A stretch of DNA of 57,659 nucleotides. Origin: an uncultured Bacilli bacterium (GTDB lineage Bacteria; Bacillota_I; Bacilli_A; RFN20; CAG-449). Of this stretch, positions 40,399 through 57,659 are shown piece after piece. The position numbers and the translations under genes were made by a program. Every line of letters begins with the position of its first letter. The stretch's first letter is position 1. The DNA lies in NCBI GenBank assembly GCA_947626895.1, contig CANQTY010000001.1, positions 68,477 through 126,135 of the forward strand, written 5' to 3'. The notes beneath the pieces were generated by a model. The model had not been told where the DNA came from and made no database searches. It saw only the letters and a program-made list of their open reading frames with translations.

Positions 40399-40475
40399 TG
40401 GTGACCTCAAGGCGACTCGAACGCCTGACCTACTGCTTAGAAGGCAGTTGCTCTATCCAGCTGAGCTATGAAGCC
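40399..40475 (-). tRNA. tRNA-Arg(TCT)
   Basis: 77-nt cloverleaf GGCTTCATAGCTCAGCTGGATAGAGCAACTGCCTTCTAAGCAGTAGGTCAGGCGTTCGAGTCGCCTTGAGGTCACCA; promoter TTGACA-16-TATGAT at 40515-40488. Confidence 0.97.
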
Positions 40476-43818: not shown

Positions 43819-45576
43819 TTAGCTTTCTTTTTGTAGTTTTTCTAAAATTTGAAGAGCTACAGATTTAGGTACTAGATGAATGAGTTCTTCATAAGTTGCA
43901 TTTTTTAAACTCTCTAAACTTGGATAAGTTTTAAGGAGCATCTCTTTTCTTTTCACACCGATTCCCTCAATAGAATCAAAGAAACTATTTCCCATATTTT
44001 TAGCTCTTTTTTGACGATGGAAAGTGATAGCAAAACGATGTACTTCATCTTGCATGCGCATTAAAAATAAAAAGAGTTCATGATGTTCCTTTAAGGAGAT
44101 TACTTCTCCATCTTTAATTAAATAGGCGGTATGGTGGTGATCATCTTTAGCAAGTCCAGCAAGTGGAATATTAACTCCAACTTCTTGTAAAGATAAATAC
44201 GCAGCATTCATTTGATTTTCCCCTCCATCAACAATGATTAAATCAGGAAAAATGCCTTCTTCTTCTTTAAGTCTTTTATAACGACGATAGATAACCTCTC
44301 TCATTGATGCTAAATCATCTTTTCCAGAAGATTCTTTGATATTATATTTACGATATAAAGAAGGAACTTTAATGCCATTAACAAAGCAAACCATTGCTCC
44401 AATTGGAGATTCTCCTTGAAGATGAGAATTATCAAATAATTCAATTCTTAAAGGAGCATTCATATTCAATAAACTTCCTAATTCCTCTAATAAAGAAAGC
44501 ATATCATCTTCAAGACGCGCGGTCATAAAGTGTTCATCAATACCATTTTTTGCATTTTCTAAAGCAATAAAGAGTTGTTCTTTTTTTACTCCTCGTAAGG
44601 GAACAATCACTTTGACTTTAAAAATATCTTCTAGTCTAGCTTTAATTTCTTCATTTCCAATGATGATTTCTTTAGGAAGATCATGCGTTTCATAATATTG
44701 GAATAATAAGGAGATTTCTTGTTCATTTAAATCTTCTTCTTCCTCTAAGACGAAAAGATTTTTACCTAATAAATTCCCATTTCGATAAGTTAAAATGACA
44801 AGGGATATATAAAAATCTCTTTTTGCAAGAGCAATAACATCTCGAGAAATACGATTTTGTGACATGATTCCTTGTTTTTCTGCAATATAATGAATGGCAT
44901 CAAGTTGTTCTTTATATTCTTGCGCTTTTTCAAATTCTAAAGCAGCACTAGCTTCATTCATCTTTTGTTTTAATTCACTAGTTAGACCTCCAATATCTCC
45001 TTTTAAAAAGCTTTTGATTTCTTGTACAAGCGGAGCGTATTCTTTTGCTTCTATTTTTCTTACACAAGGTCCCATACATTGATGAAGATGATAATATAAA
45101 CAAGGAGATGTAGGAATATTTTGACATTTTCTTAAAGGATATAACTTATTTAATAAATCAATAGTTTTATAAGTAGCTTGCGAGGAAGGGAAAGGTCCAA
45201 AATAAATGTAGTTTTTATCCTTATCTTTATAAGCAATCTTTAATAAAGGATCTCCATTTTTTCTTAAAGCGATAAATGGGTACGATTTTCCATCTTTTAA
45301 AAGGATATTATATTTTGGATAATATTTACGAATTAAATTGAGTTCCAAAAGTAAAGCCTCTTTTTCCGAGCTTGTTTCAATCGTATCAAAATCTCTAATT
45401 TCTAAGACCATACGAAACACTTTTCCCTCTTGGGGACGGAAAAAATATTGTTTTACCCGTTTAATTAAAGATTTTGCTTTTCCTACATAGATGATTTTAC
45501 CCTCTTCATTTTTCATGAGGTAAACACCAGGGACATCTTTTAATAAATCGATTTTTGCTTGCAATAAAGAATTCAT
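43819..45576 (-). CDS. uvrC: Excinuclease ABC subunit C
   Basis: PGVYLMK, IYVGKAK, PKYNILLKDGKSYP, RIELFDNSH, DEVHRFAI, HhH. Confidence 0.97.
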   Translation of the reverse strand: MNSLLQAKIDLLKDVPGVYLMKNEEGKIIYVGKAKSLIKRVKQYFFRPQEGKVFRMVLEIRDFDTIETSSEKEALLLELNLIRKYYPKYNILLKDGKSYPFIALRKNGDPLLKIAYKDKDKNYIYFGPFPSSQATYKTIDLLNKLYPLRKCQNIPTSPCLYYHLHQCMGPCVRKIEAKEYAPLVQEIKSFLKGDIGGLTSELKQKMNEASAALEFEKAQEYKEQLDAIHYIAEKQGIMSQNRISRDVIALAKRDFYISLVILTYRNGNLLGKNLFVLEEEEDLNEQEISLLFQYYETHDLPKEIIIGNEEIKARLEDIFKVKVIVPLRGVKKEQLFIALENAKNGIDEHFMTARLEDDMLSLLEELGSLLNMNAPLRIELFDNSHLQGESPIGAMVCFVNGIKVPSLYRKYNIKESSGKDDLASMREVIYRRYKRLKEEEGIFPDLIIVDGGENQMNAAYLSLQEVGVNIPLAGLAKDDHHHTAYLIKDGEVISLKEHHELFLFLMRMQDEVHRFAITFHRQKRAKNMGNSFFDSIEGIGVKRKEMLLKTYPSLESLKNATYEELIHLVPKSVALQILEKLQKES

Positions 45577-47873
45577 TTTAAAATGACCACCGTAGCGCCA
45601 GCGCCACCTTCGCCAGCATTACCTAAACGATAAGATTCAATATAATTTTGCTTCTTTAAATATTCCCAGACTGCTTTTTTTAGTCGACCCGTACCATAAC
45701 CATGAATAATCCGAATGGATTTATAATGCATAATACGTGCATCATCTAAATATTTTGCTAAAGCATCGATACCTTCTTGTACGCGAAGGCCAATTAAATT
45801 ACATTCTAAAGGAACATTTTTTCCTAAAGTAGAATATAATAATCTATCGTTTGTTTTAGGCTTTTTCTCCTTAAAACAACTTACTTTCTTCAATGAAGAT
45901 TTTTTCACTCTTAAAGTAAGCCCATTATCTAATAAAACGATTGCTTCATTCGACGATAATGATTTAATCACCCCATAGGAGGAAGATTTCTTTTCTAAGA
46001 TGCGATCACCAATTTTTAATGTATCATCAACTTCTTCATCTTCTTCTATTTCATCTTGATTCATCTTATCATCGATTTTCTTTTTTAAAGAGATGACTTC
46101 ATGAAGTTTAATCTCTTTCTTATTTTTGAATTCATTCATGAGTTCATCGATTTCTTTTTTTGTTTCTTTTAAAAGTTCTTCTTTTTCTTCTTCAACTTGT
46201 TCCATTAGATGTTCTTTTTCTAGTTTAATTTTTTGATATTCATCTTCAACTTTTTTCATATTTTCTTTTAAGGCAAGATTTTGTGCTTCTAAATCATGCC
46301 GTAAATCATCAACTTCTTTTAACTTATCATTTAAAATTTTAATTCTTTTTTCTGAATCACTTTCATTCTTTTCTAAATAGTTTTTGGCATTGTCTAAGAC
46401 ATCTTTTGGTAACCCTTCTTTCATGGCAACTTCAAGACCATAACTTTTACCAATCATTCCCTGACGGATTTTAAAAGTTGATAACATCTTTTCTTCATCA
46501 TAAATCATTGAAGCATTTAAAATATAATCTTGTTCAAGAGCAAAGGATTTTAATCCATCATAATGTGATGAAATCATCGCATAGGCGTTTAATTTATGGA
46601 GATATTCTATAACACCAATGGCGATAGCTTCACCATCTCGCGGGGAAGTTCCTGTACCTAATTCATCTAAAATGACAAATGAAGAGGAATCAACATTTTC
46701 TAAAGCTTCCCTTAATGTTTTAATATGTGAAGTAAAAGTAGAAAGATGGTCACTTAACGATTGTTGGTCACCAATATCGACATATACGTGATTAAAATAA
46801 GGTAAACTAGCTTCTTCGCAAGGAAGAGCAAGTCCACTTTGATGCATTAAAATAAATAAACCTACCATCTTTAAAAAGACAGTTTTTCCTCCTGCATTAG
46901 GACCTGTAATTAATAAAATCTTTTCTTGATTAAAATGAAATGAATTAGAAACTACTTTATGAGGATCTAATAAGGGATGACGAGCATCTAAAAGAGAAAA
47001 TTCATCTTCACTTAAATGAGGAATAATTCCTTTCATATCAAAGGCCAAAGAAACTTTAGCAAAAAGGAAATCTAAAGAAGTTAAGATTAAAAAATCTTCT
47101 TTAATTGTATCCACATCTTTCGAGGCAATCTTTCCTAATTCACGAAGAATTCTTAAAATTTCTTCTTCCTCTTCATGATATAATGCCTCAATTTTTTGAT
47201 TAGATACTAAAATTTCAACAGGTAAAATAAAGACAGTTGATTTCGATTGAGAATAGCCAATGACTACTCCATCCACGGCATTTTTATAGGATACATCAAT
47301 GGGTAAAGCAAGACCTTGATCTTTCATTACTAATTGTTCTGAATTTAAATACTTTTTATATTTTGTTATTAAAGATTTATATAAAGAATCTTGCTTTGTT
47401 TTTTCATGTTGAATAGAAGTTCTTATATGATATAACTCACTTGAGGCTCGATCAGAAATCGATAAGTTTTTATCAATTACAGAACTTAGACGATTTCTTA
47501 AAGAATCTAAAGGTAGTAAGCGAGAAATATAACTATTTAAACGCGGATAATGAATATATTCTTCTTTGTTTTCTAAAATCTCTTTCACGTTGATTAATAA
47601 ATCTTTTAAATTAGCAAAAAATTCAATATTACCTGTGCCATTCTTTTTTAAATTCATTAATGCAGGTAATAAATTGATTTGATGATGAATGATAGGAAGT
47701 AAATGATGATTTCCATAGTTCATTGCTTCTTCTAAATCTTTTTTAACTTCAATTAAATCGATTTTAGGAAGCATTGCTAAAGAATCCACATAAAATGCCG
47801 CTAATTCGATATGTGTATATTTTTTTAGGCGTTCTTTAATTTGATCAAATTCAAGTTTTTTAATAATATCCAT
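45573..47873 (-). CDS. mutS2: MutS2 with Smr domain
   Basis: ARHPLL, TGPNAGGKT, DIGDQQS, DELGTGTSP, IIHGYGTG, GGAGAT. Confidence 0.95.
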   Translation of the reverse strand: MDIIKKLEFDQIKERLKKYTHIELAAFYVDSLAMLPKIDLIEVKKDLEEAMNYGNHHLLPIIHHQINLLPALMNLKKNGTGNIEFFANLKDLLINVKEILENKEEYIHYPRLNSYISRLLPLDSLRNRLSSVIDKNLSISDRASSELYHIRTSIQHEKTKQDSLYKSLITKYKKYLNSEQLVMKDQGLALPIDVSYKNAVDGVVIGYSQSKSTVFILPVEILVSNQKIEALYHEEEEEILRILRELGKIASKDVDTIKEDFLILTSLDFLFAKVSLAFDMKGIIPHLSEDEFSLLDARHPLLDPHKVVSNSFHFNQEKILLITGPNAGGKTVFLKMVGLFILMHQSGLALPCEEASLPYFNHVYVDIGDQQSLSDHLSTFTSHIKTLREALENVDSSSFVILDELGTGTSPRDGEAIAIGVIEYLHKLNAYAMISSHYDGLKSFALEQDYILNASMIYDEEKMLSTFKIRQGMIGKSYGLEVAMKEGLPKDVLDNAKNYLEKNESDSEKRIKILNDKLKEVDDLRHDLEAQNLALKENMKKVEDEYQKIKLEKEHLMEQVEEEKEELLKETKKEIDELMNEFKNKKEIKLHEVISLKKKIDDKMNQDEIEEDEEVDDTLKIGDRILEKKSSSYGVIKSLSSNEAIVLLDNGLTLRVKKSSLKKVSCFKEKKPKTNDRLLYSTLGKNVPLECNLIGLRVQEGIDALAKYLDDARIMHYKSIRIIHGYGTGRLKKAVWEYLKKQNYIESYRLGNAGEGGAGATVVILK

Positions 47874-47947
47874 AAGTTCACCTACAATATTTTAGCATCT
47901 TCCATGATTTTTCTCACTTTTTTCTTTAATTATGTTAAGATAATTAT

Positions 47948-48841
47948 ATGAAATATATAACTTTACCCATTAGTGAAGAACAAAAAGATCAACTTATTTC
48001 CTTTTATGAAGATGAAAAAGTCGAGATAAAAGGGGATTATTTAATATTTTCCGCGAAACATGAGGATATCACTATTTTTATTTATTCTTCATCTAAAGGT
48101 TATAAGGTTGTTTATCAAGGTGAAAATCCCTTAAACGAAGCACAAATTTTCTTTAAAGAAGCAAGCCTAAATGAACCTAAAAAGAAAGAAAAGACATTGT
48201 TTTATGATTTATCTAATCAAATTGGAAGCGATGAAGTTGGAACAGGAGATTTTTTTGGTCCTTTAATTGTTACAGCATGTTATTTTAGTAGTCAAAATCA
48301 AGACTTAATAACTACATATAAAATTAATGACTCAAAAAAGTTAACAGATGAAATTATCTTAGAAACAATCCCTAAAATCGCACCCCATGTAACGTTTTCA
48401 CAATTTACTTTGCATCCTTTACAATACAATGAGCTCATTTTAAAAGGATGGAATATGAATCAAATCAAAGCTTTTTTGCATAACAAAGCTTTACTTTCTA
48501 TATCTAAGAAAGTGCATTGTAATAATGGCTTTATCGATCAATTTTGTTCACCTATGCAATATTTTTCATATATAAATAATGAAAAAGAAATCTATAAAGA
48601 TTTACTATTTTCCACGAAAGGAGAAAGTCATTATCCAAGCATTGCTATCGCCTCGATGATGGCTCGTTATTCTTTTCTAAAAGAAATGGAAAAAATGAAT
48701 GAAACGTATCAATTTTCTTTTCCTTTCGGTGCAGGAAAACGTGTTGATGAAGCTATCCAAGATTTTATTAACAAATATCATAAAGAAGAATTAACAAAAG
48801 TTGCTAAAATAAATTTTAAAAACTATAAAAATATAGATTAA
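47948..48841 (+). CDS. rnhC: Ribonuclease HIII
   Basis: IGSDEVGTGDFFGP, DSKKL, IDQF, KGES, AKINFKN; divergent from mutS2. Confidence 0.95.
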   Translation: MKYITLPISEEQKDQLISFYEDEKVEIKGDYLIFSAKHEDITIFIYSSSKGYKVVYQGENPLNEAQIFFKEASLNEPKKKEKTLFYDLSNQIGSDEVGTGDFFGPLIVTACYFSSQNQDLITTYKINDSKKLTDEIILETIPKIAPHVTFSQFTLHPLQYNELILKGWNMNQIKAFLHNKALLSISKKVHCNNGFIDQFCSPMQYFSYINNEKEIYKDLLFSTKGESHYPSIAIASMMARYSFLKEMEKMNETYQFSFPFGAGKRVDEAIQDFINKYHKEELTKVAKINFKNYKNID

Positions 48842-48860
48842 TTTAATACGTTTTTATATT

Positions 48861-49772
48861 TTATTGTTCTTTTAGAAGTTTTTGTACGCGTTTAAATTCA
48901 TTATCTACTTCACAAGTAAATTCTACTCTTTCCTTTGTTTTTGGATGAATAAAACTTAATAAATATGCGTGAAGCATCTGTCCTAAATTTGTTAAGGGTT
49001 GATGCTTATTTCCATAGATATTATCCCCAATAATAGGATGATGGATGTAAGCTAAATGAACGCGAATTTGATGAGTTCTTCCTGTTTCTAATTCACAAGA
49101 TACTAAAGTTGCATTTTTATATCTATCGATGACATGTACTCTAGTAGTAGAGTCTTTTCCATTTTTTAAATTCACCCCCATTTTTAGACGATTTTTTTCA
49201 TCTTTACCAATTGGAGCTTTAATGATGATATCATTATTTGGAATCACCCCTTCACATAGAGCGTAATATTTTCGATACATCGTTTTATCTTTTAATTGAT
49301 TCGATAAAAAGATATGCGCTTCATCATTTTTAGCTACGACAAGAAGTCCAGAAGTATCTTTATCGATACGATGGACAATTCCTGGACGTATCACTCCATT
49401 AATTGAAGATAATTTTGTTTTTTGATGCATCAAAGCATTTACTAAAGTACCTCCAGAAAAATGACCATTGCTAGGATGAACCACCATTCCGCGAGGTTTA
49501 TTAATCACCATTAAATCATCATCTTCATAGACGATATCTAAGGGAATGTCACTTTCTACGATTTCTAAAGGCGTTTCTTTTAAAGGTTCAAAATTGATTT
49601 CATCGCCATTTTTAAGGCGATATGAACATTTTGCAGTTTTGCCATTAACTAAAACATTGCCATTTTCAATGGCTTTTTGAATATAAGATCGAGAATGTTC
49701 TTTAATCATCATAACTAAATAAGCATCTAATCTTATATTATTATGTTCTTCATCAATAGAAAAAATAGACAT
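48861..49772 (-). CDS. rluD: RluD-family 23S rRNA pseudouridine synthase
   Basis: S4 domain RLD, NKPRGMVVHP, HRIDKDTSG, TGRTHQIRVH. Confidence 0.95.
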   Translation of the reverse strand: MSIFSIDEEHNNIRLDAYLVMMIKEHSRSYIQKAIENGNVLVNGKTAKCSYRLKNGDEINFEPLKETPLEIVESDIPLDIVYEDDDLMVINKPRGMVVHPSNGHFSGGTLVNALMHQKTKLSSINGVIRPGIVHRIDKDTSGLLVVAKNDEAHIFLSNQLKDKTMYRKYYALCEGVIPNNDIIIKAPIGKDEKNRLKMGVNLKNGKDSTTRVHVIDRYKNATLVSCELETGRTHQIRVHLAYIHHPIIGDNIYGNKHQPLTNLGQMLHAYLLSFIHPKTKERVEFTCEVDNEFKRVQKLLKEQ

Positions 49773-50473
49773 TATTCTTCTTCTTTCTTTTCACTAGTAT
49801 CTTCTTTTTTTGTACCGTTTTCATTATTTTCTTCTTTTACTTCATTATTTTCAGTAGGTTTTTCTTCTTCATTTTGAATATCGCTTTTAGTATTTTCTTC
49901 ATTACCTTCTTTTTCTTTATCTTCTTTTGCCTTTTCATCCATAAATAAACCTATGACGATAAAGACCATAGCGACAGTTAAACAACTATCAGCGAAATTA
50001 AATACAGGGAAATCTCCAATTAAGGGTAAATGGAAGTCTAAAAAATCGATGACACCAGGTTTTACTCCAATGACTTTTAAAAAGCGATCAATTAAATTAC
50101 CAATACACCCAGGAATGACTAAAAATAAGCCTATTCTCATGCATTTTCCCATTGTAAAGAAATGCTTAACAAAATAAAGAATAGCAATAATTGCACCTAA
50201 AATAGAACATAACATCAAAATAAATGTTCCTATATCAAATCCATTGACATTTAAGTCTCCAAGTAGACCAGAAAAGCCACCTGGATTATAGACTAAAGTA
50301 AAACGAAAGAACCCATCAATTACAGTAATTCTATGTGTTGGTTCATTAAGTAAGATGGCTTCCATAGTAAACTTTGTTACCATATCGATAACAAACAGGA
50401 TCACCATGATATAAAGATGATGTTTAAAAAAGAAGATGGTTCCTTTTTTTATAGCGTCAAGAAACTTATTCAT
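49772..50473 (-). CDS. lspA: Lipoprotein signal peptidase II
   Basis: D..TK, NPGGFS, GNLIDR, VIDFL, FNFAD. Confidence 0.95.
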   Translation of the reverse strand: MNKFLDAIKKGTIFFFKHHLYIMVILFVIDMVTKFTMEAILLNEPTHRITVIDGFFRFTLVYNPGGFSGLLGDLNVNGFDIGTFILMLCSILGAIIAILYFVKHFFTMGKCMRIGLFLVIPGCIGNLIDRFLKVIGVKPGVIDFLDFHLPLIGDFPVFNFADSCLTVAMVFIVIGLFMDEKAKEDKEKEGNEENTKSDIQNEEEKPTENNEVKEENNENGTKKEDTSEKKEEE

Positions 50474-53210
50474 GCTTTTTTAATTCCTCTTTACAACGTG
50501 CACAAACATGACTACCTTCATATTCTTCTAGAGTATCAAAGTATTGCCAGCATCGTTCACATTTCACCCCATTATGACGTTTTACATCGATAAGGAGGTG
50601 ATTATATTCTTGATGAGCCTCACCTAATTCACATTTAGAAACGATGAATAAAAGATTCATTTCTTCTTTAGTAAATCTCGCTAAAACTCTTTTTGCCATT
50701 TCGTCCTTTGGAGTAATGACAAGAGAGGCCTCTAAAGAGGAACCAATTAATGAAGTACTTCTTGCTTCTTCAAGAGCTTTCATCACATCATCTCGCACAG
50801 ACATGAATTCTTGATATTCTTTTAATAAAGCTTCATCTACTACTTCCTTCTTTGGCATATCTTCTAAAACGATATATTTTTCTTTATGTAAGGAAGGCAA
50901 ATATTGTTGAACTTCTTCCATAGTAAAGGCTAAAGTAGGTGCTAATAATAAAGATAATTCTCTTATAATCTTAAATAAGACTGTTTGGAATTCCTTACGA
51001 ATATGAGAATCTTCTCCATCACAATATAAAGGATCTTTAGCAATCGATAGATAAAATGCTGAAACATCTTGAGTTAAGAATGTTAAAATCTCTTGAATCA
51101 TATTTGCAAAATTATAATTATCATATTCTTTTAAGGCGATATTCTTCACTTCTTTTAAACGTTCAAGAATGTATAATGAATATCTAGAAAATTCAGTTAC
51201 ACTATCTTTATCTTCATCAAAATAGGAAGAGGAATTAGCCAAATTCGCTAACATAAATTTAAAGATATTACGGATTTTTCGATACGTATCTGCGCAAGTC
51301 TTAATAATGGAATCAGATATTCTAACATCGGCTTGATAATCAACCGTAGCAACATAAAGTCTTAAAATATCTGCGCCATATTGACTAATAACTTTATTTG
51401 GATCAATGCCGTTTCCTAAAGATTTAGACATTTTATTGCCATTTCCATCTAAAACAAAGCCATGACTTACAACACAATCATAAGGTGCCACGCCTTCAGT
51501 AGCAACTGAGACAATTAAAGAAGCATTAAACCAACCACGATATTGATCACAGCCTTCTAAATATAAATCTGCAGGATATTTTAATCCACGTTCAATTAAC
51601 ACAGAACGAGAGGAAGAACCGCTATCAAACCAAACATCCATAATATCCATTTCTTTTCTAAATGGAGCTAAATCTTTATGCGATTCAATATATCCTTCTG
51701 GTAATAAGAAGTCGACATCTTTTGCAAACCAGATATCGCTACCATATTCGCCAATTAAATCTTCAATATGATCAAAGATTTCTTTTTCCATTAAAGGATT
51801 TCCGTTTTTATCATAGATAATTGGTAAAGGTACACCCCAAGCTCTTTGTCGAGAAATACACCAATCCTCACGATCTTTAATCATATTATGCATACGAATT
51901 TGTCCCCATTCTGGAACCCACTTAACACGATCAATTTCTTTTAGTAATACATCTCGGATTGCATCAATTGAACAGAACCATTGAGGTGTTGCTCTAAAGA
52001 TGACAGGTTTTTTTGTTCTCCAGTCGTGGGGATAAGAGTGTACGATTTCATTTCTTCCAAGTAAAGCATGCACTTCTTCAAGCATTACAAGCACTTCTTC
52101 ATTTGCTTTTTCATAGAACAAACCTTTAAGTCTATCCCCAGTTGTTTCATCCATGAAGCCATGTTCATCCACTGGACAATAAGGTTCTAAATGGTATTTT
52201 TTACCAACTTTATAGTCATCTTCACCATGTCCAGGCGCGGTATGAACACATCCTGTACCTGCATCGCTAGTGACATGATCACCTAAAATAATCACAGATT
52301 CACGATCATATAAAGGATGTTTTGTTGTGATATATTCAAGTTCTTTTCCCATGAAGGTCTTGATTAATTCGACTTTTTCTAAATGAAGTTCATCATGTAA
52401 AGTTTCTTTTAAGGAAGTTAAAAATACGAGTCTTCCTTTATCTGTATCAAATAAACCATATTCTAAATCAGGATTTAAACAAATCGCTAAATTTGCAGGG
52501 ATTGTCCAAGGGGTCGTTGTCCAAATGACAAAAGCATCATCTTTCGTTAAGATTCCTTTTCCATCTAAAACATCAAATTTAACATAGATGGTCGTAGCTT
52601 TGACATCTTGATATTCAATTTCTGCCTCGGCAAGCGCGGATTCACTCGAGGGAGACCAATAAACTGGTTTTAATCCCTTAAAGATATAACCTTTTAAAGC
52701 CATTTCTTTAAAGACATGAATTTGTCCTTTTTCAAATTTTTTATCTAAAGTAACATAACGATTATCAAAATCAGCAAGAATTCCTAAACGTTTGACTTGA
52801 TTCATTTGACGCTCGACTTGTTTTTTTGCATATTCTTCACATTTTTTACGAAAATCGATTAATGGGGTCGTTTTTCGATTCACTCCAGATTTTGTAACCG
52901 CGGTTTCAATGGGTAAACCATGGGTATCCCAACCTGGAATAAAAGGAGTATAAAATCCATTCATCGCTTTATAACGAATCACGATATCCTTTAAGATACG
53001 ATTTAACATATGTCCACAATGCATATCTCCATTTGCATAGGGAGGACCATCGTGTAACATGAAACAAGGATCTTTTTCATGTTTTTTCATCAAGAGATGA
53101 TAGACATCATCTTGATACCATTTTTCTAACATCTTTGGTTCTTTTTGGGCTAGATTCCCTCGCATTTCAAAATCCGTTTTGCCCATCAATAAAGTCTTGT
53201 TAACTTCCAT
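50466..53210 (-). CDS. ileS: Isoleucyl-tRNA synthetase (type 1)
   Basis: HDGPPYANG, HCGH (HIGH motif), WTTTPWT, WCISRQR, KMSKS, C-terminal Zn finger. Confidence 0.98.
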   Translation of the reverse strand: MEVNKTLLMGKTDFEMRGNLAQKEPKMLEKWYQDDVYHLLMKKHEKDPCFMLHDGPPYANGDMHCGHMLNRILKDIVIRYKAMNGFYTPFIPGWDTHGLPIETAVTKSGVNRKTTPLIDFRKKCEEYAKKQVERQMNQVKRLGILADFDNRYVTLDKKFEKGQIHVFKEMALKGYIFKGLKPVYWSPSSESALAEAEIEYQDVKATTIYVKFDVLDGKGILTKDDAFVIWTTTPWTIPANLAICLNPDLEYGLFDTDKGRLVFLTSLKETLHDELHLEKVELIKTFMGKELEYITTKHPLYDRESVIILGDHVTSDAGTGCVHTAPGHGEDDYKVGKKYHLEPYCPVDEHGFMDETTGDRLKGLFYEKANEEVLVMLEEVHALLGRNEIVHSYPHDWRTKKPVIFRATPQWFCSIDAIRDVLLKEIDRVKWVPEWGQIRMHNMIKDREDWCISRQRAWGVPLPIIYDKNGNPLMEKEIFDHIEDLIGEYGSDIWFAKDVDFLLPEGYIESHKDLAPFRKEMDIMDVWFDSGSSSRSVLIERGLKYPADLYLEGCDQYRGWFNASLIVSVATEGVAPYDCVVSHGFVLDGNGNKMSKSLGNGIDPNKVISQYGADILRLYVATVDYQADVRISDSIIKTCADTYRKIRNIFKFMLANLANSSSYFDEDKDSVTEFSRYSLYILERLKEVKNIALKEYDNYNFANMIQEILTFLTQDVSAFYLSIAKDPLYCDGEDSHIRKEFQTVLFKIIRELSLLLAPTLAFTMEEVQQYLPSLHKEKYIVLEDMPKKEVVDEALLKEYQEFMSVRDDVMKALEEARSTSLIGSSLEASLVITPKDEMAKRVLARFTKEEMNLLFIVSKCELGEAHQEYNHLLIDVKRHNGVKCERCWQYFDTLEEYEGSHVCARCKEELKKHE

Positions 53211-53225
53211 CTTGACCTCCTAAAT

Positions 53226-53447
53226 AAAATAAAACGTCCTATCTAAGGACGCCAAATGACGCGGTACCACCTCAGTTCCTAATTACTTAGGCTCTTCATT
53301 TACCTTTAACGCATGTTCACGGAAAAGAATACTATTGTTCCTCTTTCCAGCTCCAGAAGGATAAGTTTCTATCTTTTCTTTATCTTTTTTCACCAAGCAA
53401 AGACTCTCTATGAAAGATTCGATAGGCTTCTGTTTCTTTCATCGCCA
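53226..53447 (-). promoter_or_regulatory. T-box riboswitch (Ile)
   Basis: AGAGA and GGTGA stem-I motifs, ATC specifier at 53362-53360, T-box AACTGAGGTGGTACCGCG (53277-53260), terminator CGTCCT...AGGACG-TTTT. Confidence 0.92.
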
Positions 53448-53579
53448 TTAGCTTGATTATTACATAAATTTTTAACGCTTTCAATTTATTGAAGCATAAT
53501 TTGCATTTTTAAAATGAACTTGATAGAATAAGGAAGTAAAAATAATGTCGAAAATCGACAAATAAAGGGGAGAATGTTT

Positions 53580-54410
53580 ATGAATTACGTACTTTATAAT
53601 TCCAAAGCGAATAACCAAATTAAAAATGAAAAGCTCGAAGAATACAAAGCAAAAGGAGCAAAAGTCTTAGATGTCACAGAATTAGATTATCGTGAATTCT
53701 TTAAAAATCTATCAGAAGGTGAAGAAGTCTATCTTTTTGGAGGAGATGGTACCATCAACTATTTAGCAAATGCCATGGATGGTGAGGAAATTGAAAATAA
53801 TATCTATTTAATTCCATCTGGCACAGGAAATGATTTCTTTAATGATGTTGTAAGTGATCCAAATGTAGAAAAAATCTTATTAAATCCTTATTTAAAGAAT
53901 TTACCAACCGTTGAAGTCAATGGCATCAAACGTAAATTCATCAATGGTATTGGTTTTGGTATTGATGGTTATTGTTGTGAAGTCGGTGATGAATTAAGAG
54001 CTAAATCCGATAAACCAGTCAATTATACAAGTATTGCTATTAAAGGTTTACTTTTCCATTTCAAACCAAGAAATGCTGTGATAACAATCGATGGAGAAAC
54101 CTATGAATATAAACATTGTTGGTTAGTTCCCTCTATGGAGGGGCGGTTCTATGGTGGAGGTATGATGGTCGCTCCAAGTCAAGATCGAAAAGAAAAAGGT
54201 GTTGTTACCGTCGTAGTTTATATGACTAAATCTAAATTAAAAGCCTTAATGACTTTCCCTTCCATCTTTAAAGGAGAACACGTCAAAAAAGAAAAAATGG
54301 TTAAAATCTTTAAAGGAAAAGAAATTACTGTTACCTTTGATAAACCAACCGCTTTACAAATTGATGGGGATACAGTGAAAAACGTAACCACCTATAAAGT
54401 ACATGCATAA
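53580..54410 (+). CDS. Diacylglycerol kinase family lipid kinase
   Basis: GGDGT, PSGTGNDF, GIGFGID, YGGGM, QIDGD. Start is 53574 or 53580. Confidence 0.92.
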   Translation: MNYVLYNSKANNQIKNEKLEEYKAKGAKVLDVTELDYREFFKNLSEGEEVYLFGGDGTINYLANAMDGEEIENNIYLIPSGTGNDFFNDVVSDPNVEKILLNPYLKNLPTVEVNGIKRKFINGIGFGIDGYCCEVGDELRAKSDKPVNYTSIAIKGLLFHFKPRNAVITIDGETYEYKHCWLVPSMEGRFYGGGMMVAPSQDRKEKGVVTVVVYMTKSKLKALMTFPSIFKGEHVKKEKMVKIFKGKEITVTFDKPTALQIDGDTVKNVTTYKVHA

Positions 54411-54412
54411 AA

Positions 54413-55231
54413 ATGGTTAAAATTGTCTTATTACTCATTACTTTCGCGATATCAATATTTGAATGTTTTATTACCCCAGTAAATGAAATCTATTTTCAAA
54501 TATTGCTCTTTTTAGCCTATAGTATTGCTAATTTATTATTGATTATCATTCTCTTTTTTATCATTTCCTTTATCATTGGTTTACCTATCAATACTAAAAA
54601 AGAGAATCATCACTATAATAAGTTTTATCGTCATGTTTTAGTTTTAGCAACAAGAATATGTCTATCCTTATTTAGTGTGAAAGTCACCAAAAAAGTATTA
54701 GAAAAAATTCCTCAAGATACAAACTTTTTGCTTACCTTTAATCATCGATCAAATTTAGATTCGATGATTATCGATGTAATTTTAAAAGATATCCCCTTAG
54801 TATTTATAGCTAAAAAATCACTATTTAAAATTCCTTTCTTTGGAAAAATGCTCCATGCAATTGGCTATATTAAATTAGATCGAAGCCATCTTCGCCAAGA
54901 ATATATCGCCATTTGTGATGGTATTGATTTATTAAATAGTAACGAGTGTTCCATTGGTATATCTCCTGAAGGAACTAGAAACTTTACTGAAGAAAAACTT
55001 CTTCCTTTTAAAGCAGGTTGTTTCCGTTTAGCAACCAAGAGTAAAAAGCCAATTGTTGTTACTATATTAAAAAATACAAAAGAAATTAAAAAACATCTAT
55101 TAATCAAAAGACACAAGGTTTCTTTTGAGGTTTTAGATGTTTTATATTTTGAAGATTATAAAGATTTAAATAATTATGAAATTGCTGACAAAGTTCAAGA
55201 AATTATGCTCAAATCTTTAAATGAAGATTAA
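54413..55231 (+). CDS. plsC: 1-acyl-sn-glycerol-3-phosphate acyltransferase
   Basis: NHRSNLD, FIAKK, PEGTR, FKAG. Confidence 0.92.
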   Translation: MVKIVLLLITFAISIFECFITPVNEIYFQILLFLAYSIANLLLIIILFFIISFIIGLPINTKKENHHYNKFYRHVLVLATRICLSLFSVKVTKKVLEKIPQDTNFLLTFNHRSNLDSMIIDVILKDIPLVFIAKKSLFKIPFFGKMLHAIGYIKLDRSHLRQEYIAICDGIDLLNSNECSIGISPEGTRNFTEEKLLPFKAGCFRLATKSKKPIVVTILKNTKEIKKHLLIKRHKVSFEVLDVLYFEDYKDLNNYEIADKVQEIMLKSLNED

Positions 55232-56250
55232 ATTTTCTTTCTTGGAATACCATCTACAATTTCCCAACTATCCCTATAATAAGTAGGGATTTTTATATTG
55301 TTATATGCTTCATTCCAGTTCATATCATATCCTTTTGTATCCTCTTCTTTCCTATCTACATATATAGTAATGTCTTTTAAGTCATAAAAAGCATAATTTT
55401 CTATATAGTCTACTTTTGAAGGAATGATAATCCATTTTAAAGAAAAACATGAGGCAAAAGCAAAATCATGAATGATTTCTATTTCACTAGGAAGCATAAT
55501 CTTTTCTAAAGAAGAACAATCTCCAAGTAATGTTGATGGAATTGATTTTAAATTCTTTGGTAATGTAATCTTTTTTAATTTACTACAATGATCAAAAACA
55601 AGTTGACCTAAAGATGTATCATCATTTAAAAAGGTAACTTCTTTTAATGAAGAACAATTTTTAAATGCCCCGTAAGCTACTTCATTAATACTTTTAGGAG
55701 TACTTATTTTTGTAAGACTACTACAATTTAAGAAAGCATATGAAGCTATTTTACTTACAGGATATTTTTTATTTTCAACTTCAATAAAACTAGGAATTTT
55801 AAAATCTTTTTCTTTTCCTAAATATAAAGTTAAAATTGCTTCTTGATCTTGATAAACATAATAGGCATCATCTTGAATCCATAATTTTTGATTGTCATTC
55901 CTTAAATAATAAAATCCTATCGAGGCATTGGTCCAATACTCATTCCATTCCGCTCGAAAATAATCATATTGATCATCAATATAGACATGAAGATGCTCAT
56001 CTAAATCAAGAAAGATTGCCCAATGTTCCATATATTGATATCCATGAGGAATCATAAGAGCTTTTAAAGAAGGATGAATAAATGCATTTGATTTAATACC
56101 TAAAATAGGATAAGTAATCCCTTCGATTTCAATGGATATAGGTAAAGATAAAACTAAAGCATTACCGATATATTTTTCAATCATTGCACCTTTTTCATCA
56201 TATAGATAAACTAAGCCATTTTTATCTTCATATCTTCTTTTTTCATCCAT
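55228..56250 (-). CDS. BspA-type leucine-rich repeat (LRR_5) protein
   Basis: Repeated AFxxCxxLxxIxLP units; ATG 56250 behind GAGGTG; no signal peptide. Confidence 0.88.
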   Translation of the reverse strand: MDEKRRYEDKNGLVYLYDEKGAMIEKYIGNALVLSLPISIEIEGITYPILGIKSNAFIHPSLKALMIPHGYQYMEHWAIFLDLDEHLHVYIDDQYDYFRAEWNEYWTNASIGFYYLRNDNQKLWIQDDAYYVYQDQEAILTLYLGKEKDFKIPSFIEVENKKYPVSKIASYAFLNCSSLTKISTPKSINEVAYGAFKNCSSLKEVTFLNDDTSLGQLVFDHCSKLKKITLPKNLKSIPSTLLGDCSSLEKIMLPSEIEIIHDFAFASCFSLKWIIIPSKVDYIENYAFYDLKDITIYVDRKEEDTKGYDMNWNEAYNNIKIPTYYRDSWEIVDGIPRKKI

Positions 56251-56388
56251 GTAGCTCACCTCAAAAAATCGTCTAAATATATTTTAATCAATATCCATCT
56301 TTATTTATATATTCTTATTTATCTTTTTGCATTTTAAGTTGTAATCTACTCCACTTTAGTCATGGATTGCGACTATATTGATGTTCTT

Positions 56389-57247: not shown

Positions 57248-57339
57248 ATTTAAAAAATCTCCTTATGTTTTGATGAGGCATTATTACGCCTTTTCTTCAT
57301 CAAAATAGAAATACTGAGGGGGATATTTCTTACACTTAT

Positions 57340-57369
57340 AGTATAAATTGAAAGTTTTCATTTTTGCAA
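57340..57369 (-). promoter_or_regulatory. Sigma-A promoter driving the small-ORF array
   Basis: TTGCAA, 18 nt, TATACT. Confidence 0.55.
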
Positions 57370-57479
57370 GAAAAATTTTTATTTCATTATTATAAAAAAA
57401 GTTTTTGATGCTCACCCAAAAAATCGCACCATTTTTATTTTCAAAAAATTTTTTACACGCATTTTTACACGCATCAAAT

Positions 57480-57500
57480 AAAAAAAGCCTATTTCTAGGC
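57480..57500 (-). terminator. Terminator downstream of the tRNA-His sequence
   Basis: GCCTAG-AAA-TAGGC hairpin followed by T7. Confidence 0.6.
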
Positions 57501-57514
57501 GATATCAACTAAGC

Positions 57515-57584
57515 TGGGGCGATTGATCAGAATCGAACTGACGCGTGTCTGGTTCACAGCCAGATGTGTTAACCACTTCACCAC
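57515..57584 (-). tRNA. tRNA-His(GTG), 5'-truncated (positions 1-6 replaced)
   Basis: D arm, anticodon arm TCTGG-CTGTGAA-CCAGA, T arm and CAATCGC-C-CCA end are intact; the 5' strand reads AAACGGG instead of the complementary GCGATTG. Confidence 0.85.
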
Positions 57585-57659
57585 CCGTTTTTAGGATTTA
57601 ACACCATAAAATTTAGGATTTAGAAATATTTTCAGTAAAGTTTACTTATAAAATAAGTA
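57585..57659. mobile_element. Possible end of a mobile element abutting the tRNA-His junction
   Basis: TTTAGGATTTA direct repeats at 57590 and 57612 (22-bp period) beside the break point; no recombinase gene within the window. Confidence 0.4.

Follow-up and report, generated by a model that had tools for sequence, protein, structure and literature searches.

An apparently broken tRNA-His gene in a gut Bacilli genome is probably explained by an IS1634-family insertion with a 246-bp target-site duplication

The stretch of DNA analysed here, called the window below, comprises the final 57,659 nucleotides of contig C1 of an uncultured Bacilli genome (C1 68477-126135; C1 has 126135 bases, so the window end is the contig end), and a tRNA-His gene appears to be broken close to that end. 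We think it very probable that one insertion sequence (IS) of the IS1634 family transposed at the single tRNA-His gene of this genome, giving a layout in which contig C1, the IS and contig C12 follow one another, with a target-site duplication of 246 bp. The function of the tRNA-His is not lost, and the copy in the window is a 5'-truncated duplicate without function; what looks like damage to an essential tRNA gene is in this way explained as harmless. Long and variable duplications by IS1634 and IS1549 are already published, and this element joins the known IS1634 family. What is of interest is that, by means of a long duplication, an IS can insert into an essential tRNA gene present in a single copy and leave it functional. 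The case also carries a warning, in that a partial tRNA beside an element end at a contig end of a fragmented assembly need not mean that an integrase has targeted the tRNA.

A truncated tRNA-His abuts the end of a mobile element

Direct reading of the minus strand close to the contig end gives tRNA-His positions 7-76, with the D arm, the GTG anticodon arm, the T arm, the 3' acceptor strand CAATCGC, C73 and an encoded CCA (Table 1), in agreement with the original prediction that the tRNA is well formed from position 7 to CCA. The piece is without G-1 and positions 1-6. The place of positions 1-6 is occupied by AAACGG, for which pairing with the 3' strand is impossible; this too had been predicted, and re-reading the sequence gave the same result. 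ARAGORN did not call the piece when run on the window, where its only tRNA is a tRNA-Arg at 40399-40475. The contig ends 75 nt past the break, and these nucleotides belong to a mobile element whose end abuts tRNA position 6/7, as had been proposed.

Table 1 Features at the right-hand end of the window.
Feature	Position	Strand	Remarks
Left copy of the 246-bp target-site duplication	57339..57584	.	BLAST, 100% identity to C12 77-322
Terminator-like hairpin GCCTAGAAATAGGC and T-run	57480..57500	-	Direct reading; just downstream of the tRNA, within the duplication and in both copies
5'-truncated pseudo-tRNA-His	57515..57584	-	No differences from the corresponding stretch of the intact tRNA-His, C12 c[253,328]
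IS1634-family IS left terminus, first 75 nt	57585..57659	+	Starts CCGTTTTTAGG; truncated where the contig stops, with the transposase gene expected further to the right
Subterminal repeat TTTAGGATTTA, copy 1	57590..57600	+	Invariant columns in the alignment of four element ends
Subterminal repeat TTTAGGATTTA, copy 2	57612..57622	+	22 bp from copy 1; one of 11 columns varies, in one of four sequences

An intact tRNA-His lies beside the other end of the element

Across the whole genome (102 contigs, 1.52 Mb, 30% GC) ARAGORN calls one tRNA-His, the one on C12, and it is intact. BLAST of the contig ends against the genome shows that C1 125815-126060, the left repeat copy of Table 1, is identical to its C12 counterpart at 246 of 246 positions. 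This repeat contains tRNA positions 7-76 together with 176 bp downstream of the tRNA. The C1 copy ends exactly at tRNA G7 and continues into CCGTTTTTAGGATTTAAC..., while the C12 copy continues into AATCGCC, the other-strand reading of tRNA positions 6 to -1, beyond which lie ordinary chromosomal genes. On its other side the C12 copy adjoins 76 nt found at no other place in the bin, according to BLAST and a motif search of the genome. The original prediction had regarded the tRNA as inactive unless a full copy were restored at the far end of the element, and such a copy is present: the intact tRNA-His, with GGCGATTG, is found on C12 next to the IS right end. Through the right repeat copy the tRNA-His is made whole again, with the upstream region and the terminator that belong to it, so that a working gene is kept.

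The nearest genes with a Pfam match before the C1 copy encode a BspA-type leucine-rich repeat (LRR) protein, an acyltransferase, a DAG-kinase-like protein, IleRS and LspA; three small ORFs lie closer to the repeat and have no Pfam match. The BspA-type ORF (343 aa, minus strand, window 55228-56259; BspA-type leucine-rich repeat region PF13306, E 2.2e-33) has the acyltransferase gene on one side and the tRNA region on the other, and the corresponding interval of ~1.1 kb in the same-genus genome G001 gives no DNA-level alignment to it. Inside the duplication, at window 57394-57500, a 60-70-nt stretch that includes a tandem TTTTTACACGCA (two copies) and the terminator hairpin recurs at 92-98% identity at C65 1937-2003, where it adjoins a tRNA-Gly (c[2016,2089]), and at C33 86-190; it recurs in part at C8 1396-1425, beside a tRNA-Pro, and on C9. 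The depth of public sequencing runs peaks over this stretch, which therefore looks like a shared tRNA-downstream module.

The ends of the element point to an IS1634-family insertion sequence

Of the sequence beyond the tRNA break, 74 nt recur in inverted orientation at the start of contig C23, beside different DNA upstream of rpsB-tsf-pyrH-frr. This recurrence indicates a repeated element end with at least two junctions in the genome. When the 75 nt of the window were aligned with the left ends of homologous copies in two other genomes (G019:C26 and G024:C17) and at the metagenome locus L073, the mean column identity was 87%. A search with a 77-nt end in 61 genomes (this one and 60 relatives) gave matches in 23, the present genome included, and the matches lie mostly within ~80 nt of contig ends.

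Within the left end, the original prediction had described direct repeats at 22-bp spacing, and these are the two copies of TTTAGGATTTA in Table 1. A weaker third copy had been seen ending at 57644; by eye it retains 6 of 11 bases and falls in a variable part of the alignment, and we do not retain it. TTTAGGATTTA occurs 22 times in the 1.5-Mb genome, four of these in two copies of this element end. Since both copies occupy invariant or nearly invariant columns of the four-end alignment, they reflect more than chance, and what had been taken for the phased end repeats of a recombinase-type element are, as judged from this alignment, conserved subterminal motifs of the IS left end. They are putative transposase-binding sites. 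The motif TTTAACACCA also appears near each tip of the IS, both times in direct orientation: 12 nt from the tip on the left (window 57597-57606) and 27 nt on the right (C12 40-49). The inverted repeat at the termini of the IS is imperfect.

The right end is provided by C12 1-76, which aligns to the right ends of the L073 and G019 copies with a mean column identity of 76%, all of them ending in AAAGTCAGG. Translation of C12 2-43 yields SHRDIKHLLDTEF*, 13 C-terminal codons with a stop placed like that of the relatives' transposases. In homologous copies, the same termini enclose one gene only, for an IS1634-family DDE transposase, in 1.90-1.91 kb (element lengths of 1914 bp in G019, 1899 bp at the metagenome locus L068 and 1901 bp at L073; a contig of public run X1 has 1903 nt). 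The transposases have 579-585 aa. Scored with NF033559, the IS1634-family transposase model with a cut-off of 100 bits, the ORFs of G019:C26 (585 aa), G024:C17 (579 aa) and L073 (584 aa) reach 345.9 bits (E 4.4e-103), 299 bits (E 7.1e-89) and 296.9 bits (E 3.2e-88), respectively. The Pfam model DDE_Tnp_1 matches weakly, with 24.9 bits for G019:C26 (cut-off 23) and 22.7 bits, under the cut-off, for G024:C17. A table in De Palmenaer et al. 2008 (PMC2266710, as far as its text was available) gives the IS1634 family a length of 1500-2000 bp and the terminal consensus C-----YT; the length agrees, and both termini fit, with CCGTTTTT on the left and CCTGACTT as the reverse complement of the right. 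The duplications, 246 bp here and ~255, 144, 128 and at least 117 bp in relatives, place the element in the long-repeat subset that the same text describes. By sequence, then, this is very probably an IS1634-family DDE insertion sequence of ~1.9 kb, its transposase gene seen in homologous copies, and the family assignment of the present copy is drawn from 75 + 76 nt of termini and the 13 C-terminal codons. The 1911-nt metagenome contig L066 has the same left terminus and a AAAGTCAGG right terminus around an interior that barely matches the G019 IS (247 nt at 66%); the contig may represent a diverged member of the family, or else these termini may surround some other interior.

The body of the element is missing from the assembly

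Searches of the genome for the rest of the element, with the NF033559 profile and with the DNA of the G019 IS, gave no matches. Because the IS is multi-copy and its body of ~1.9 kb lies below the 2.5-kb contig cut-off of the assembly, the contig stops 75 nt into the IS. The shortest contig of the assembly has 2532 nt, which fits the absence of the IS body, and contig ends overlap by 77 nt, a pattern expected where contigs stop at a repeat. Scanning metagenome contigs for exact matches to the last 40 nt of the window gave no loci; a scan with the conserved 21-nt terminus gave eight, none of them from this strain.

Public sequencing runs supply part of what the assembly lacks. Run X1, in which 0.91 of the sampled words are present, is possibly the source sample. 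Its 1903-nt contig, which ends on 57584-57659, is very probably the IS body, judging by its end and depth, and is present in roughly two to four copies (depth 15.2, against a flank depth of 3.9-6.8). A 169-nt contig of X1 covers 57444-57612 with no differences and crosses the junction by 28 nt, under the 31-nt rule. A loose end of X1 before 57339 reads ...CCAAAGTCAGG / ...GGGGTGTTTACCAAAGTCAGG, in which the beginning of the repeat directly follows the IS right end. X1 has two further left-end junctions, one of the C23 type and one other, so that at least three different ones occur in all. Runs X5 and X7 cover 17 of 30 and 7 of 30 bins of the stretch, respectively, and contribute nothing on the junction. 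Sequence like that of the present genome is found in animal-gut metagenome runs.

One insertion with a long stagger probably accounts for both junctions

From the product we infer a mechanism of staggered joining. The two IS ends would have joined target strands 246 bp apart, with one joint between tRNA positions 6 and 7 and the other 176 bp downstream of the tRNA 3' end, and repair synthesis would then have duplicated the intervening 246 bp. On the plus strand, the left side would run from the window genes through the repeat copy with tRNA positions 76 to 7 into the IS left end, and the right side from the transposase gene through the IS right end (C12 1-76) and the second repeat copy (C12 77-322) to tRNA positions 6 to -1 and the rest of C12, with a single IS copy presumably joining C1 to C12. 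Staggered joining with repair synthesis is the standard origin of target duplications. The available text of PMC8024623 likewise states staggered joining as the origin of such duplications.

The related genome G001, and perhaps a second public run, bears on the site before insertion. On G001:C7, genes like those of C12, one tRNA-His and homologues of window 45063-55186 are contiguous (68-75% identity), which means that the flanks on C1 and C12 were ancestrally adjacent, and neither IS end has a match on that contig. Run X2 has a 2969-nt contig on 57444-57584 that continues into AATCGCC..., the intact tRNA, and a 222-nt contig that crosses the left repeat boundary. Neither IS junction at this site is among the X2 contigs and loose ends listed, such contigs being a record of presence and not of absence. 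This pattern is what would be expected of an empty site and hints at one.

A different account of the same ends is that the two junctions stem from two different IS copies, either as a composite transposon bracketing a larger segment or through recombination or inversion between IS copies. Two to three or more IS copies are present, so the junctions could in principle belong to different ones: X1 has at least three left-end junctions and an IS contig whose depth is 2 to 4 times that of the flanks, the partner repeat of the left end on C23 is absent from the bin, and no sequence read joins C1 to C12. Against this, the repeat is perfect over all 246 positions, its orientation and register are those expected for one insertion, G019 and L068 have single copies with the same architecture within one contig, and the flanks are adjacent in G001. 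We therefore regard an origin from two copies as improbable. An assembly artefact, in which a chimeric contig end joins the tRNA to unrelated DNA, comes to mind because the assembly is MAG-like and fragmented (102 contigs, k=77 overlaps) and the junction lies 75 nt from the end of a contig. Nevertheless, the counterpart junction between the IS right end and the repeat start is found both on C12 and as the loose end of X1 among the Logan contigs. The X1 Logan contig over 57444-57612 carries no other letters, even if X1 may be the same sample, and the architecture is reproduced in four other insertions in other genomes, making an artefact very hard to believe.

The original prediction inferred an insertion at an unusual 5' tRNA site; it cited the phased direct repeats of IS607-type serine recombinases as background and named a serine recombinase, tnpB or a group I intron as things to look for. 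More broadly, a site-specific recombinase element (IS607-like or a tRNA integrase island) or a group I intron at a 5' site of the tRNA-His, with the repeats as binding sites, would account for an element end that abuts tRNA position 6/7 and for phased direct repeats at that end, and islands with long att repeats on either side are known from tRNA genes. The position of the element end at 6/7 stands, but the tRNA is not the recombination site, as it lies inside the 246-bp duplication, and the repeat extends 176 bp past it. Homologous termini enclose an IS1634-family DDE transposase and nothing else, the same end occurs at non-tRNA DNA in C23, in relatives and in X1, and the relatives' repeats differ in length and sequence, so that there is no fixed att core. 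We consider this family of explanations extremely unlikely. As to its members, an IS607-type element would have a serine recombinase, with or without TnpB, and leave no target duplication, and here the homologous copies carry the DDE transposase and the 246-bp duplication is present. A tRNA integrase island or prophage would have a tyrosine or serine integrase gene and a fixed att core common to attL and attR, and the homologues have a single DDE ORF and repeats that vary by insertion. A group I intron would be a structured RNA of ~200-500 nt in the anticodon loop with a tRNA half on each side, and here the break is at 6/7 and the flanks are a 246-bp duplication.

Related copies also carry long duplications

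Repeats of 117 to ~255 bp flank five of the seven copies with both ends identified, the present one included. In G019:C26 the flanks align over 260 nt at 98.5% (~255 bp after trimming to the termini); G021 has one repeat of 144 bp at 100% (C28/C31) and one of 128 bp at 97.7% (C23/C32); and L068, from a metagenome, has 117 bp at 100% before the contig runs out, with 236 bp inferred from the start of the left copy. In G019 and L068, the single IS copy and its repeats lie within one contig in the architecture proposed here. The other two copies, G018:C3 and L067, show no repeat. The count leaves aside L072, whose right end was not located, L066, which has no flanks, and unpaired ends in G001, G030 and G021; among the IS ends of G001 (three loci) and G030 (four) no flank is shared, and partner contigs may be missing.

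These numbers raise the possibility, which we put forward tentatively and rate at somewhat less than an even chance, that duplications of ~120-260 bp are the regular mode of this gut-bacterial IS1634 lineage and not an occasional accident. If so, insertions of this lineage 'inside' an essential gene that is short, for instance that of a single-copy tRNA, need not kill the host, as one side of the duplication holds the gene rebuilt in full. The lineage would also offer a natural series for the mechanism of long target duplications: the two IS ends might, for instance, carry out strand transfer while only loosely coupled, or the element might insert at gapped replication intermediates. In any case, the lineage supplies several near-perfect duplications of 128-255 bp from uncultured gut bacteria that can be used for the study of mechanism.

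IS1634 itself, the family type element from Mycoplasma mycoides subsp. mycoides SC, was reportedly first described by Vilei et al. in 1999, and the original paper on IS1549 is said to be that of Plikaytis et al. in 1998. The homologous copies fall in the same NCBIfam family, NF033559, as IS1634, and the likeness extends over family model, size, termini and duplications; the host differs, being here a 30% GC, 1.5-Mb genome from animal-gut metagenomes. Duplications of the IS1634 family are usually AT-rich and 5-6 bp long, whereas IS1634 and IS1549 together have unusually long and variable repeats of 8-514 bp, for which the available text of De Palmenaer et al. 2008 gives no accepted mechanism (PMC2266710). 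IS1549 of Mycobacterium smegmatis, with its long variable direct repeats, belongs to the same family, first named IS1549 (PMC2266710, available text); its host is actinobacterial, unlike the present one, and the likeness drawn here is that of the published description. ISGka5 of Geobacillus kaustophilus is a further member of the IS1634 family, and its transposition has been observed experimentally with a 6-bp direct repeat, within the usual 5-6 bp of the family, compared with 128-255 bp here (PMC8024623, available text).

The layout at the tRNA-His also resembles a quite different kind of element. In genomic islands and prophages that target tRNA genes through tyrosine integrases, an intact tRNA is found at one end and a partial 3' copy of the tRNA at the other. 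The present element likewise has an intact tRNA on one side and a partial 3' tRNA on the other. It differs from them in having no integrase, in its size of 1.9 kb with a DDE transposase (in homologous copies), and in a repeat that reaches 176 bp past the tRNA and differs with each insertion.

Other repeats in the genome

At the C23 locus that carries the second left end (L037), two ~55-nt direct repeats with 89% identity lie upstream of rpsB, at C23 204-258 and 329-382. Each opens with CATATAATAAAAGTA, followed by a hairpin-like stretch and a T-run.

A different sequence of ~74-77 nt, with 94-100% identity, is common to at least 12 contig ends or near-ends of the genome, for instance at the starts of C2, C3, C14, C39 and C63, at the ends of C33 and C75, and inside C4 (57752-57825), C13 (1668-1736) and C55 (166-240). 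A related 46-nt core occurs in many more contigs (C9, C10, C11, C17, C38, C46, C50, C53, C56, C66 and C67). In all likelihood the assembly is broken up here by a second IS or other repeat of high copy number.
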